Virus record (IMG/VR): IMGVR_UViG_2663763282_000011
DNA: 15,824 nucleotides
Strand: one strand, 5' to 3'
DNA from: a virus
Lineage: Duplodnaviria; Heunggongvirae; Uroviricota; Caudoviricetes
Below the pieces are notes generated by a model. That model saw only the letters and a program-made list of their open reading frames with translations. It was not told the origin of the DNA and made no database searches. The position numbers were made by a program, and so were the translations under genes. Of the stretch, positions 1,270-15,824 are shown in pieces; position 1 is the stretch's first letter, and each line of letters opens with the position of its first letter.

Positions 1270-1325
1270 CGAACAGATACAACGTGCAACAATGAGCAAC
1301 AATGCGGAACAACTACGAACAAGAG
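1270..1325 (+). repeat. Tandem array of about 10-bp units each containing AACA(A) (gcaacaatga / gcaacaatgc / ggaacaacta / cgaacaagag, with weaker units upstream), phased at 10 bp
   Basis: Read directly: units start at 1286, 1296, 1306 and 1316 with an AACAA core, in the AT-rich int-alpA intergenic region. Confidence 0.45.
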
Positions 1326-1604
1326 GTGAAAAAGTGTACAGATTTATAAGTAGCTGATTTTTAATGTGTTACTGATTTTTTATACACTAGCGAATCACTC
1401 TTTAAATAGCGAGAAAAAAGGCATGAAACAATATTTTATGCCTTTGTATTAACATGAATTTAAAGGATTTTATCCTGATTATTCCTCTTTCTGTAAACCA
1501 TACGGCCTCAACATTTGCCAACTCTGAATCATCCTGACACAATCAGACACATCCCAACGCAATAGAACACGAAATAACTCTTTAAGAAACGAAAGGGGGC
1601 AATA

Positions 1605-3017: not shown

Positions 3018-3162
3018 TGATCGTTTTAATTCCCTGAAACAGGAATTTTCCGGCGTTCCTGATGATGCGGCTGATGCGCTTTCGTCAATGCCAGAACTTA
3101 TTAGAGCGGCTTTTTTCTTACTTTCCACGAGAGAATATAAATCAACGGGCTTGATGTACTGA
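3010..3162 (+). CDS. Hypothetical protein, 50 aa
   Basis: ATG 3010 directly follows a G-rich SD (the G8 run) and lies next to the stop of the upstream ORF. No recognisable domain. Confidence 0.35.
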   Translation: MRDDRFNSLKQEFSGVPDDAADALSSMPELIRAAFFLLSTREYKSTGLMY

Positions 3163-3470: not shown

Positions 3471-3770
3471 ATGAAACTTAAATATTCTGGCTTAACTGCC
3501 AGTGGCAACACTCACCCTAAATTTACGCGCGGTGATATTTACCGCGACCAGTACGGCGGCATGGTAACGATTAAAGGCGTGGCAGAACGGCGCATCACCT
3601 ACCGCCGTGAAGGTTACGAATATGATTGCGTGATGCCTGTTTATCAATTCCGGCGTGATTTCACGCTGGTACAGGCAGCGCCCCGCAGTAAACCAACCAG
3701 CAGGGAGAAAGCACGCGCCAATATTCAGGAAATAAAAAAGATGCTTAACGTATTCAGGGGTAAAAAATGA
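3471..3770 (+). CDS. Hypothetical protein, 99 aa, translationally coupled to the primase
   Basis: GGAGA SD upstream; its stop overlaps the primase start (ATGA at 3767-3770). Confidence 0.55.
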   Translation: MKLKYSGLTASGNTHPKFTRGDIYRDQYGGMVTIKGVAERRITYRREGYEYDCVMPVYQFRRDFTLVQAAPRSKPTSREKARANIQEIKKMLNVFRGKK

Positions 3771-5515
3771 AACTGGCACCGAACGTAAAAAAACAGCCAC
3801 GCGGAATAAAACACAAAGACACAGAGGTAATTATCTTTGCGGGTAGTGATGCCTGGTCGCACGCGAAACAATGGCAGGAGCAGGATGGCCCCGCATCCGG
3901 CGATAATGTGCCGCCTGTGTGGCTTGGGCCAAATCAGCTTGCCGAACTTGATGCACTGAAAATTGTTCCGGATGGAAAAAAACGCGTAAGGCTGTACCAG
4001 GCCGGAGAACTGGATTTGGTGGAGACCAAAAAGATTGGTCAGAAGCTGGCGGCGGCAGATATTCAGGACGCAAATTTTTACCCCGAAGGAATGCACGTCC
4101 AGAAGTGTGAAAACTGGCGGCGCTATCTGAATGCTGAGCGTGAAAATATTGCCGCAGGGCTTACCATGCCGGAGCAGAAAAATACGCAACTGGCACAAAT
4201 GGCAGACAGTGAGCGCGCGCAGCTGCTTGCCGAGCGCTTTGATGGCGTTTGTGTGCATCAGGAAAGTGAAATCGTTCACGTATGGCGCGGCGGGGTATGG
4301 TGTCCGGTCAGCACAATGGAACTTAGCCGCGAAATGGTGGTGATCTATTCAGAGCACAGGGCCACTTTCAGCAAGCGCGTAATCAATAACGCCGTGGAAG
4401 CGTTAAAAGTTATTGCCGAACCAATGGGCGAGCCGTCCGGCGATTTGCTGCCGTTCGCCAATGGTGCGCTTGACCTGAAAACGGGGGAATTTTCCCCGCA
4501 CACGCCGGAGAACTGGATCACCACGCACAACGGCATTGAGTACACGCCACCAGCACCAGGGGAGAACATCCGCGATAACGCGCTAAACTTTCATAAATGG
4601 CTTGAGCACGCAGCCGGAAAAGACCAGCGCAAGATGATGCGTATATGTGCCGCGCTGTACATGATTATGGCGAACCGGTACGACTGGCAGATGTTTATTG
4701 AGGCCACCGGAGACGGCGGGAGCGGTAAAAGTACATTCACACACATAGCCAGCCTTCTGGCAGGGAAACAGAACACGGTAAGCGCTGAAATGACATCGCT
4801 TGATGATGCTGGTGGACGTGCGCAGGTTGTCGGGAGTCGTCTTATCGTCCTGGCTGACCAGCCGAAATATACAGGCGAAGGAACGGGCATCAAGAAAATC
4901 ACGGGCGGTGACCCCGTGGAAATTAACCCGAAATACGAAAAGCGTTTCACGGCTGTAATCAGGGCGGTGGTGCTGGCGACCAACAATAACCCGATGATAT
5001 TCACCGAACGGGCCGGAGGTGTGGCACGTCGTCGCGTGATTTTCCGTTTCGACAATATCGTTAGTGAGGCCGAAAAAGACAGGGAGCTACCGGAAAAGAT
5101 TGCGGCTGAAATCCCTGTCATTATCCGCCGATTGCTGGCGAACTTTACCGACTCTGAGAAAGCACGGGCTTTACTACTGGAACAGCGTGACGGTGATGAA
5201 GCTCTGGCAATAAAGCAACAGACGGATCCGGTTATTGAGTTTTGCCAGTTCCTGAATTTTCTGGAGGAAGCACGCGGCCTGATGATGGGCGGCGGTGGCG
5301 ATTCAGTGAAGTACACGACCAGAAACAGCCTTTACCGCGTCTATCTGGCGTTTATGGCGTACGCAGGCAGGAGCAAACCGCTAAACGTAAATGACTTTGG
5401 CAAGGCTATGAAGCCAGCCGCGAAAGTTTACGGACATGAATATATTACGCGGAAAGTTAAGGGAGTAACGCAGACTAACGCAATAACAACAGACGAGTGC
5501 GACGCGTTTTTATAA
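3767..5515 (+). CDS. Replication initiator: phage/plasmid primase-helicase (P4 alpha C-terminal domain type, SF3 NTPase), 582 aa
   Basis: Walker A 'TGDGGSGKST' and Walker B-like 'RLIVLADQ' read in the translation. Size and position (followed directly by iterons) match the PICI pri-rep gene. The N-terminal domain is not confidently assigned. Confidence 0.88.
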   Translation: MKLAPNVKKQPRGIKHKDTEVIIFAGSDAWSHAKQWQEQDGPASGDNVPPVWLGPNQLAELDALKIVPDGKKRVRLYQAGELDLVETKKIGQKLAAADIQDANFYPEGMHVQKCENWRRYLNAERENIAAGLTMPEQKNTQLAQMADSERAQLLAERFDGVCVHQESEIVHVWRGGVWCPVSTMELSREMVVIYSEHRATFSKRVINNAVEALKVIAEPMGEPSGDLLPFANGALDLKTGEFSPHTPENWITTHNGIEYTPPAPGENIRDNALNFHKWLEHAAGKDQRKMMRICAALYMIMANRYDWQMFIEATGDGGSGKSTFTHIASLLAGKQNTVSAEMTSLDDAGGRAQVVGSRLIVLADQPKYTGEGTGIKKITGGDPVEINPKYEKRFTAVIRAVVLATNNNPMIFTERAGGVARRRVIFRFDNIVSEAEKDRELPEKIAAEIPVIIRRLLANFTDSEKARALLLEQRDGDEALAIKQQTDPVIEFCQFLNFLEEARGLMMGGGGDSVKYTTRNSLYRVYLAFMAYAGRSKPLNVNDFGKAMKPAAKVYGHEYITRKVKGVTQTNAITTDECDAFL

Positions 5516-5530
5516 TTTTTTGTAATTGCT

Positions 5531-5765
5531 GTCTACCCTGTCTACCTGAGTAAAGAAAAATACATTTAATTCAGTGCATTAAGTTAGGTAGATAGCCTTT
5601 TTTTACTGTCTACCCACTATCTACCCTCTCTACCTGATTTTACCTGAATCAGACAGGGAGGTAGACACGGGGTAGATAGTGGATAAAAGCACTCTACCCC
5701 GCTGAAAGCAGCGCCATTACTGGCATGAGGGCCACTAAGGTAGATAAGGTAGACAAGGGGAGGCA
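5531..5765. repeat. Replication origin: iteron cluster of about 14 copies of a 7-8 bp motif GTCTACC / GGTAGA(C/T)A in both orientations, with an AT-rich spacer
   Basis: Read directly: GTCTACC at 5531, 5540, 5608; ATCTACC 5619; CTCTACC 5627, 5693; GGTAGATA 5587, 5671, 5749; GGTAGACA 5660, 5758. Lies immediately 3' of the primase/rep gene, as in PICI and SaPI origins. Confidence 0.75.
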
Positions 5766-6393: not shown

Positions 6394-6555
6394 ATGACAG
6401 CACAAATTGCAGCTTACGGGCAGCTGGTGGGCGACCCGCTGGTAAAACAGAGCAGCAAGGGCACACCGGAGCCGCCAACGGAGAACTACGCAGACCTGAG
6501 AAATGCAGTAAATCGCACTTACGCAGACATGGGGCTGAGCAAATTAGCAGAGTAG
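6394..6555 (+). CDS. Hypothetical protein, 53 aa (MTAQIAAYGQLVGDPLVKQSSKG...)
   Basis: GAGGTGG SD 5 nt upstream of the ATG. Below the ORF-track cutoff, found by manual translation. Followed by an intrinsic terminator. Confidence 0.4.
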   Translation: MTAQIAAYGQLVGDPLVKQSSKGTPEPPTENYADLRNAVNRTYADMGLSKLAE

Positions 6556-6577: not shown

Positions 6578-6610
6578 AGCCGGAGCAATCCGGCTTTTTG
6601 TTATTTTTTG
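6578..6610 (+). terminator. Rho-independent terminator closing the replication-module operon
   Basis: 7-bp GC-rich stem AGCCGGA/TCCGGCT with GCAA tetraloop, followed by TTTTTGTTATTTTTT. Confidence 0.65.
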
Positions 6611-6858
6611 TAAATTATTTGTTCGTGGTTGTTCCACGTTGTTCACTGAGCGGATCGGCATATTTTACCCGAACTGAATCATGATTATTCTCGCCCGTGG
6701 TGCCAGGACGCTGGGGCCACTTTCCCGCCTGTTAATGTGCTCGCCAATATTCATTACCAGGCGGGAAAACGATCGGTGCGATTACTGATTTCCTTATGAA
6801 AAACGGTTGAGTGTTTGCCGCGTCCTGGAGTTCCTTACTTAACCCCAGGACTTTTTTT
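6611..6858 (+). promoter_or_regulatory. Control region of the capsid/packaging operon: TTGTTC repeats with inverted repeat CGTGG-N5-CCACG (6617-6646), 10-bp inverted repeat TTCCCGCCTG-N26-CAGGCGGGAA (6722-6767), and hairpin GTCCTGG/CCAGGAC plus T7 (6822-6858) abutting the capsid ATG
   Basis: All elements read directly. A promoter-like TTGTTC-N16-TATTTT is present. Function is inferred. Confidence 0.45.
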
Positions 6859-14297: not shown

Positions 14298-14363
14298 TGG
14301 CACTTTTTCAATGAAAATTGTTTGATCGAATCAATGACTTGATGTAGTGGTAAAAGGACATAT

Positions 14364-15824
14364 TTATTCATCTTTCGGCGCAGAATGCTGGCGACCAAAA
14401 ATCACCTCCATCCGCGCACCGCCCAGCATGCTCTCTCCGGCGACGATTTTACCCTCATATTGCTCGGTGATTTCGCGGGCTACCGCCAGCCCTACACCTT
14501 GCCCAGGGCGTAAAGTATCAACCCGTTGACCACGGTCGAAAATGACCTCTCGCTTGCTTAATGGAATACCGGGGCCATCATCCTCGACCACAATATAGAG
14601 ATGCTCGTCGGTTTGCCTTGCAGAAATTTCGACAAACTCGAGGCAATATTTACAGGCATTATCCAGCACGTTGCCCATCACCTCGACAAAATCGTTCTGC
14701 TCACCGACAAAGCTGATCTCTGGCGAAATATCGAGAGAGATATTGACCCCTTTGCGTTGATACACTTTGTTCAGCGCTGAGGTGAGATTGTCCAGCAGTG
14801 GGGCGACCGGATGCAGCTCGCGGCTGAGCAATGTCCCGCCGCGCATACTGGCACGATGCAGGTAGTAGCCAATTTGCTGTGAAATGCGGCTGATTTGCTC
14901 CAGCATTACCGGCTCAGCATCACTGACGCTCATCTTTTCACTACGCAGAGAACGCAGCGTACTTTGCAGCACCGCCAGTGGCGTTTTCAGACTATGGGTC
15001 AGGTCGGTGAGCGTCGTACGGTATTTGTCGTAACGTTCGCGTTCACTTTTTAACAATCGGTTCAGGTTTCGTACCAGACTGGTCAGTTCTCGCGTTGTGG
15101 CTGGATTGAGCAATTCGCGGTTATGTTCTTCCAGTTCGCGGACTTCTTTTGCCAGGGCTTCGATGGGGCGTAAACTCCACCAGGCGGCGACCCACAGCAG
15201 CGGGATCACTAACAGCAGATTGGCTGAGAGCACATAGATAAACCAGCTCCAGACCATATAGGAACTTTTTAGCTCCACCGGAATGGTATCCACCACCACA
15301 ATGGTTAATTTTGGCATCCGCGATGTTGCCGGGTAGACGTTTACCGCCACCGAGTGGGTCATCTCCGCGTCGTCATCATCTTCCCGCACTTCCTGCAACT
15401 GTTGCTGTATCGAATGATCTCCACTCAGCAAGAGGCTGGTATCGTTAACATCCGCTTCAATTTCATGAAAACCATTCGATTTCAGCCAGTCAGGCTGGAT
15501 CATTTTCATCAGCCAGGGCACGTCACGTTGCGCCCATAAAAGCTGCCCGTTCTCATCATAAATTAGCGTCATGGTGGGGCTTTGCTTGTCGATATTTTCG
15601 GGTAACTCGACATGCAACTTATTGTTTTCCCACTGCGCAAGGGTATAGAACAGATTGCTCTCGCCACGTAACAGCCGAAACGTAGTTTTATCGAAACTGA
15701 CGCTATAACCGATCAGCGCGACCATTCCGTAGGCAAGCGAAAGCACCAGTACTACCGCTGCCGTTGCCAACAGAAAACGTACCCGCAGCGAGAGCGGGAA
15801 AAAAAGACGCAGTAATTTTTTCAT
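14364..15824 (-). CDS. phoQ: Sensor histidine kinase PhoQ (PhoP/PhoQ two-component system), 486 aa, complete
   Basis: The translation is, from memory, essentially the E. coli PhoQ sequence ([49 protein letters not shown]...). Two transmembrane segments, an acidic periplasmic patch (EDDDDAE), an H-box ([12 protein letters not shown]) and an ATPase domain are all visible. Confidence 0.97.

Follow-up and report, generated by a model that had tools for sequence, protein, structure and literature searches.

The gap between int and alpA in a phage-inducible chromosomal island carries five tandem 10-bp units that, on the evidence presented here, form a real, conserved and helically phased element that probably binds a protein. 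This array, referred to as array B, is one of four AACAA/TTGTTC arrays, found in attL, in the int–alpA gap, upstream of the capsid gene and in attR, and it is best read as a predicted alpA operator. We favor, with moderate confidence, the prediction that the units of all four arrays are head-to-tail AlpA sites, one per turn of DNA, and that AlpA acts as the excision factor (RDF) of the island and as an activator.

The window, by which we mean the whole stretch of 15,824 nucleotides that was analyzed, corresponds to a capsid-forming phage-inducible chromosomal island (cf-PICI) whose insertion site lies between roxA and the phoQ 3′ end. It begins with int (1–1230, + strand), a tyrosine integrase with an N-terminal Arm-DNA-bind_3 domain plus Phage_integrase, followed by alpA (1605–1793, + strand), which encodes the proposed array binder, a 62-aa winged-helix protein of family PF05930 (Pfam E = 5e-18). 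Downstream are a D5-type primase (3767–5515), a module of HK97-type capsid, protease, portal, HNH and terminase genes with the capsid ATG at 6859, and phoQ, which runs on the − strand from 14364. Over its first 2 kb, the window shares 99.3% identity with the E. coli IAI39 island, its first 6.6 kb differ by one base from a Shigella flexneri genome (L007), and relatives of the island are present in ~1100 of 5426 complete E. coli genomes. A contig search with AlpA returned three loci, one being the near-identical Shigella locus L007 and the other two distant; a word-based protein search with AlpA yielded 19 relatives, including the informative distant island L106. The int ATG is the first codon of the window, which leaves the attL arm just beyond its edge; this arm was read from the near-identical IAI39 and Shigella loci.

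Other features of this island copy were recorded separately. The major capsid gene (6859–8016) is split by an in-frame stop at 7684–7686, with both halves matching Phage_capsid; the IAI39 homolog is a single 390-aa gene, and the copy in the window may not make capsids. A 53-aa ORF at 6394–6555 (+ strand of the window) matches the C-terminal portion of PerC only weakly, and relative to IAI39 this island seems to have a truncated or replaced ssb/perC region. Repeats of 9–12 bp belonging to several families (CTGTCTACC, ACTATCTACCC, TAAGGTAGA) lie in both orientations just after the primase gene, at 5507–5758, and are probably the replication origin of the island. Array B was considered as a set of replication-origin iterons and rejected, as the ori-type repeats at 5507–5758 (CTGTCTACC/GGTAGA) carry a different motif.

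Structure and conservation of the int–alpA array

Array B spans positions 1276–1326 on the + strand and consists of five 10-bp units, GATACAACGT, GCAACAATGA, GCAACAATGC, GGAACAACTA and CGAACAAGAG, with the consensus G-R-A-A-C-A-A-Y-N-N. An earlier note on this DNA had described four consecutive 10-bp units, and all four are present with the sequences it listed, starting at 1286, 1296, 1306 and 1316 with exact 10-bp spacing. It had also pointed to weaker units upstream; one of these, at 1276 (ATACAA), precedes the four strong units in phase, but GAACAG at 1271 is offset by 6, is out of phase and falls outside the array. Tandem Repeats Finder reports a period of 10 over 1286–1312 with a score of 40. 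The only match in the window to four consecutive copies of SAACAA-N4 is array B, with 0 expected from 200 dinucleotide shuffles. Chains of at least three ACAA units at 10-bp spacing appeared in 0.2% of 2000 window shuffles, chains of at least four appeared in 0 of the 2000, and phased AACAA arrays were absent from 157 kb of non-island DNA that included a lambdoid prophage and chromosomal flanks.

Conservation across homologous islands, the check proposed in the earlier note, bears the array out: it is kept in 76 loci whose AlpA is at least 90% identical, which reduce to 25 haplotypes. Information content is 1.8–2.0 bits at the four core positions versus 0.2–0.5 bits at positions 8–10, in a set of loci that was selected by requiring three ACAA units and therefore somewhat favors the core. 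Differences among the three main lineages fall at 2 of 60 positions in the ACAA core and at 41 of 90 elsewhere in the array (Fisher 2e-9), and the surrounding DNA is ~70–87% identical between lineages. Copy number is mostly 5–6, and a few loci have only 3 unbroken ACAA units. Gain of a unit adds exactly 10 bp, and locus L047 shows a clean 10-bp unit duplication. As in the site arrays of RDFs, a unit is thus repeated at a fixed interval, with five units exactly 10 bp apart and the phasing held across the 25 haplotypes.

Sister arrays at the att arms and upstream of the capsid gene

Array A is located in the attL arm, 55–90 bp upstream of int and outside the window, and is present in every related locus. 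Array C (6596–6645, − strand) has GAACAA at 6619, 6629 and 6639 plus weaker, T-rich TTGTTA and TTGTAA units, the weak units overlapping the T-tract of an upstream intrinsic terminator (6578–6595). A gap of 215 bp separates the strong part of array C, 6619–6644, from the capsid ATG at 6859. In 7 cf-PICIs, the capsids of which range from near-identical to 61% identity with that of the window, array C precedes the capsid gene by 194–216 bp, and it is retained as a ~45-bp module between non-homologous flanks. Array D (14221–14247, − strand) occupies the attR arm and reads TTGTGT, TTGTTC and TTGTTT on the + strand with 10-bp spacing; equivalents are found in the IAI39, CFT073 and 042 islands, and TTGTTCG versions in L005, L087 and L090. 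The orientation of array B is opposite to that of arrays A, C and D.

The att core GGACATATTT (14356–14365), which overlaps the stop codon of phoQ, is also present in attL, upstream of int. It is flanked by arrays A and D, and a 12-bp tandem is located 10–17 bp beyond each of them. In the attR arm of the window this tandem is GGTGTAGTTAAT GGTGTAGTCAAT (14264–14287, + strand), with a twin copy just upstream of int, outside the window; two copies of GGTGTAGTTAAT are found at both att arms (window 14264–14287, L001 15955–15978). The AACAA/TTGTTC(G) motif is present in attL and attR of every island examined, amounting to 6 att sites with Int proteins 55–100% identical. EcCICFT073 has the same att site as the window and carries arrays A, B and D with 4, 6 and 3 units, respectively. 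On the int side of attL, a core-proximal block of GTTTC, GTTCG and GTGTTCG units with 10-bp spacing was also observed (L001 15846–15886, L005 ~8840–8865), and this block of the island mirrors the I1;2 block of KplE1.

These positions change the picture drawn in the earlier note, which had opposed a left-end motif to a different one at the right end. AACAA/TTGTTC also occurs in the attR arm, in attL and before the capsid operon, and is not a left-end motif. The right-end array with which it had been contrasted consists of four GTGAC units with exact 10-bp spacing (GTGACGGAGA, GTGACAACCA, GTGACACACC and GTGACAAAAA; 13817–13851, + strand). Its motif does differ from that of the AACAA arrays, but it is located after the last ORF and ~500 bp inside attR and is not an att-arm counterpart. 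The GTGAC array is kept with other AlpA alleles and capsid modules (L005 17942–17977; E. coli 042).

RDF sites are placed in att arms, from the core to the Int arm-type sites, and this is where the attL and attR arrays are found. Array B is 1.3 kb from the attL core, and for that reason fits only the promoter-array class of dual-function RDFs. The arrangement typical of Apl and Cox, in which the same motif is found at att and at a regulated promoter, is seen here, with arrays in both att arms and ahead of both alpA and the capsid operon.

AlpA and other candidate binders

The AlphaFold model of AlpA is a winged helix (pLDDT 87), and its best PDB matches are excisionases: GIsul2 Xis 8C3T (TM 0.83, 38% identity), RdfS, Pukovnik Xis and TorI. 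With these matches and its assignment to PF05930, AlpA has the features of a small winged-helix RDF encoded by the element itself, and it is the sole island protein with an excisionase fold. Residues R21, R24, Y25, R36 and G40–W46, which make up the predicted recognition helix and wing, are invariant across alleles that are 50–66% identical; after more distant homologs were added, all of them but R42 were at least 90% conserved. The AACAA/TTGTTC(G) motif likewise persists with AlpA alleles 50–66% identical and with Int proteins down to 55%.

Published experiments with EcCICFT073 show that AlpA activates PalpA-lacZ, and that AlpA overexpression leads to int-dependent excision and replication with Pint-lacZ unchanged. 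In the same system pBAD-alpA alone, without a helper, activates the PalpA fragment and triggers excision. We mapped the published primers onto L101. The AlpA-responsive PalpA fragment (L101 8128–8583) holds array B and no other array, and the unresponsive Pint fragment (about 6621–7469) holds the attL arrays. The earlier suggestion that array B is the operator for both int and alpA is therefore plausible for alpA, as the responsive fragment spans the array, but fails for int, as AlpA left Pint-lacZ unchanged.

Islands with other alpA upstream regions keep the motif near alpA, which supports autoregulation of alpA as a common theme. In L005-type islands, three or four GAAC units lie 110–150 bp upstream of alpA; these islands had seemed to be without array B, which would oppose AlpA as the binder, until the GAAC array was found nearer alpA. 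Where an extra ORF separates int from alpA, the islands have no array B and carry two GTTCG units in a hairpin loop just before the alpA ATG. Arrays comparable to the AACAA arrays were not seen in the GC-rich locus L103, and a search with exact 4-mers found no phased arrays in CP4-57, from which AlpA was originally described. Islands that have the other AlpA allele show three AAATATC copies with 10-bp spacing right after the int stop (L005 10292–10317; L094 and L095 1292–1317), an unrelated array that accompanies their GAAC units closer to alpA.

The closest resemblance in sequence is to KplE1/CPS-53, in which the mutationally defined TorI sites I1–I5 in attL have the core GTTCG (Panis et al. 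2010, PMC2951348). Three adjacent sites, CAGTTCGTCA, TGGTTCGCTT and CAGATCGTTG, abut PintS with a 10-bp period, and a second block is located near the core; the sites are placed between the core, on one side, and the int promoter and arm-type sites, on the other (PMC2951348). The island arrays are like these sites in core sequence (TTGTTCG versus GTTCG), 10-bp period, layout and orientation toward int, and the TorI binder is a ~65-aa winged-helix excisionase, of which the 62-aa AlpA is the island counterpart. However, TorI and AlpA are 26% identical over 42 aa, TorI does not belong to PF05930 and the integrases are 22% identical. TorI sites, moreover, are known only at att, whereas the island arrays are also found 1.3 kb and >6 kb from the core.

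In arrangement, the parallel is with phage 186 Apl and P2 Cox, each of which is described (PMC7498355, PMC3936717) as a single small protein whose binding sites, direct repeats spaced by one helix turn, lie both at att and at promoters, which couples excision to the control of transcription. This is the layout that the four-array map predicts for AlpA. The sequences and motifs are unrelated to those of AlpA. At their own promoters Apl and Cox act mainly as repressors, whereas AlpA is an activator, and the promoter arrays of Apl and Cox overlap or abut promoters whereas array B is ~200 bp upstream. The X1–X1.5–X2 sites of lambda Xis also conform to the array model, with a winged-helix excisionase bound cooperatively and head-to-tail to sites ~10 bp apart in an att arm, but they occupy one arm only, differ in sequence (TATGTWGT...) and are not GTTCG-like; a comparison of lambda Xis with AlpA found no significant similarity.

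The P. aeruginosa protein of the same name is a Q-like antiterminator that recognizes an ABE, GGGACG, and rides with RNA polymerase (PMC7969949, PMC9371919). It shares with the island AlpA the name and a DNA element needed for positive control. We rejected it as a model because it is a larger protein with a 21Q-like fold and a single site between −35 and −10, and the protein here is a 62-aa winged helix; array B, with five units far from promoter hexamers, does not have the form of a Q-like single site. By analogy, then, the island arrays would work like Apl/Cox operator arrays and look like TorI sites, and by sequence they are not of the TorI family. No description of AlpA binding sites was found in the openly accessible PICI papers searched.

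Several points count against AlpA as the binder. The match to the TorI motif may be a coincidence, given the limited similarity of TorI (26% identity over 42 residues, not PF05930), and a single specificity would have to be common to AlpA alleles 50–55% identical. Array B is ~190–270 bp from the best promoter candidate, with a terminator hairpin between them, and its orientation is reversed. The Pint fragment with the attL arrays is unaffected by AlpA, whereas TorI represses PintS, and islands with an ORF between int and alpA have no array B. Small proteins conserved in the islands (DUF4222, Icd-like and YlcI/YnfO) are other possible binders.

The main alternative to AlpA is that the arrays bind a different protein, whether another island protein, a host reader of direct repeats such as the OmpR-family TorR, or a helper-phage inducer of alpA. 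We consider this unlikely, but a serious competitor nonetheless. Helper phages induce the alpA promoter region, in EcCIMP1 apparently even without alpA according to published work, and the motif is constant across AlpA alleles that are only 50–55% identical. Every island locus examined has an annotated DUF4222 protein, and Icd-like proteins are present in all islands whose gene tables were read. Tor boxes of TorR are CTGTTCATAT decamers, and units near the attL core, reading TGTTCATTAT, resemble a tor box. On the other side, the position of the arrays in both att arms beside Int arm sites, together with the GTTCG core, matches a mapped RDF, and AlpA is the only island protein with an excisionase fold. 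In addition, pBAD-alpA alone activates the array-bearing fragment and triggers excision, and the arrays are absent from the lambdoid prophage and chromosomal flanks in the 157 kb examined.

Int itself is an improbable reader of the AACAA units, although it has an Arm-DNA-bind_3 domain and the arrays sit in both att arms; on this account the units would be arm-type sites for the Int N-terminal domain and array B would let Int regulate alpA. The arm-type sites of lambda are also tandem and ~10 bp apart. What distinguishes the two elements is their behavior when Int changes. The 12-bp tandem GGTGTAGTTAAT pairs with the reference Int N-terminal domain (SVRHSTSGLL), GGTGTAGTCACT with SVKYLTSGKL and TGTGTGGTCAGT with EIKHSKGGKL, and the matching version is found at both island ends, up to 10.8 kb apart, next to an unchanged TTGTTC array. 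This covariation with the Int N-terminal domain, seen at either end of the island, marks the 12-bp tandem as a likely Int arm-type site; and as the tandem tracks Int, the AACAA arrays probably belong to another protein. The AACAA/TTGTTC motif does not covary in this way. It is constant at Int N-terminal identities of 54–80%, where the 12-bp tandem changes at both ends, and it is unchanged from 54% to 100% identity. Arrays B and C are also 1.3 kb and >6 kb from the core. The idea of different proteins at the two ends is thus upheld as to two site types and two proteins, but both types are present on both arms.

A further reading combines two binders: a helper-encoded, excisionase-type winged-helix protein, produced when the prophage is induced, would cross-bind the GRAACAAY units ahead of alpA and fire the first alpA transcription, after which AlpA would take over at att, alpA and the capsid operon. 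We judge this sequence of events improbable as well.

Two readings that do without a DNA-binding protein can be set aside as very improbable. A neutral replication-slippage minisatellite in an AT-rich spacer, with no function, would account for the variable unit number (mostly 5 or 6) and the one clean 10-bp duplication, but not for a core that is invariant next to free spacers where the surrounding DNA is ~70% identical, nor for a motif that recurs at three other places in both orientations, with array C between unrelated flanks. An element acting in RNA, which would lie ahead of the terminator in the int 3′ untranslated region and might be a CA-rich site for protein binding or transcript stability, has in its favor the conserved + strand RNA hairpin ~90 nt downstream, which suggests that the array is transcribed with int; against it are the 10-nt period, which is that of the DNA helix, the occurrence of the motif in both orientations and in att arms, where a common transcript is not expected, and the lack of any Rfam match in the window.

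Proposed control of alpA by array B and implications

Between array B and alpA we identified a hairpin with a flanking A-run and T-run at 1417–1445 (+ strand), upstream of the best alpA promoter candidate. The stem is kept in nearly all of 17 haplotypes, and G-U and compensatory changes pair only in + strand RNA; for this reason the hairpin is probably an intrinsic terminator that ends the int transcript. The promoter candidate at 1515–1543 (+ strand) has the form TTGCCA-17-CACAAT with a TG before the −10. Its −35 is kept in 8 of 8 aligned islands and its −10, (C/A)ACAAT, in all 8 but one weakly aligned row, with divergent spacers. Consensus promoter scans found no sigma-70 promoter adjoining array A, B or C. 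A class-II promoter right after array B was considered and rejected, as the distance to −10-like hexamers varies between lineages. The spacer holding array B is 35% GC, and a conserved block is present between the array and alpA; by our own reading of its letters, the conserved AATCACTCTTTAA block resembles an IHF site with two mismatches.

Two further kinds of element were observed. A direct repeat with ACTCTTTAA occurs at 1393–1412 and 1573–1592, 180 bp apart, and is conserved across lineages; the second copy adjoins the alpA ribosome-binding site. The repeat is a candidate binding site for a further factor. The capsid ATG is directly preceded (6824–6861) by a hairpin that carries the Shine-Dalgarno sequence on its 3′ arm, is followed by a T-run and, in the window, has a stem of only 5 bp. 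A stronger hairpin of this kind is found directly before the alpA ATG elsewhere (L014 ~3060–3095; L106 ~9960–10003), with GTTCG-N5-GTTCG in the loop. Such a hairpin before the capsid or alpA ATG may be a terminator or a translational lock.

If AlpA is the binder, array B would supply the documented positive autoregulation of alpA from ~190–270 bp upstream of the promoter candidate. By binding cooperatively along the five or six units as a filament, AlpA would activate alpA from a distance, possibly by DNA bending or wrapping, perhaps with a host bending protein, or by relief of silencing. This activation at a distance is the weakest part of the account; we infer both AlpA as the array binder and the route from binding to transcription. 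The att-arm arrays, beside the Int arm-type sites, would serve AlpA in excision, and AlpA would thereby couple excision to transcription control in the manner of P2 Cox, 186 Apl and KplE1 TorI.

The kind of element described here is familiar, and none of the PICI papers searched maps AlpA sites in these islands. Gram-negative phage-inducible chromosomal islands have AlpA as their master switch, and the four-site map, the 10-bp unit and the separate Int arm-site motif together give a directly testable wiring diagram for this protein. The map would explain how AlpA overexpression leads to excision without raised int transcription, and it offers sequence handles for PICI-based delivery vehicles and for annotation of att arms. 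If the arrays are first read by a helper protein, they would be the entry point of the long-sought helper-phage signal into Gram-negative PICIs. With AlpA as the binder, excision, self-amplification and, in capsid-forming islands, the expression of late genes could all be linked through a single small protein.
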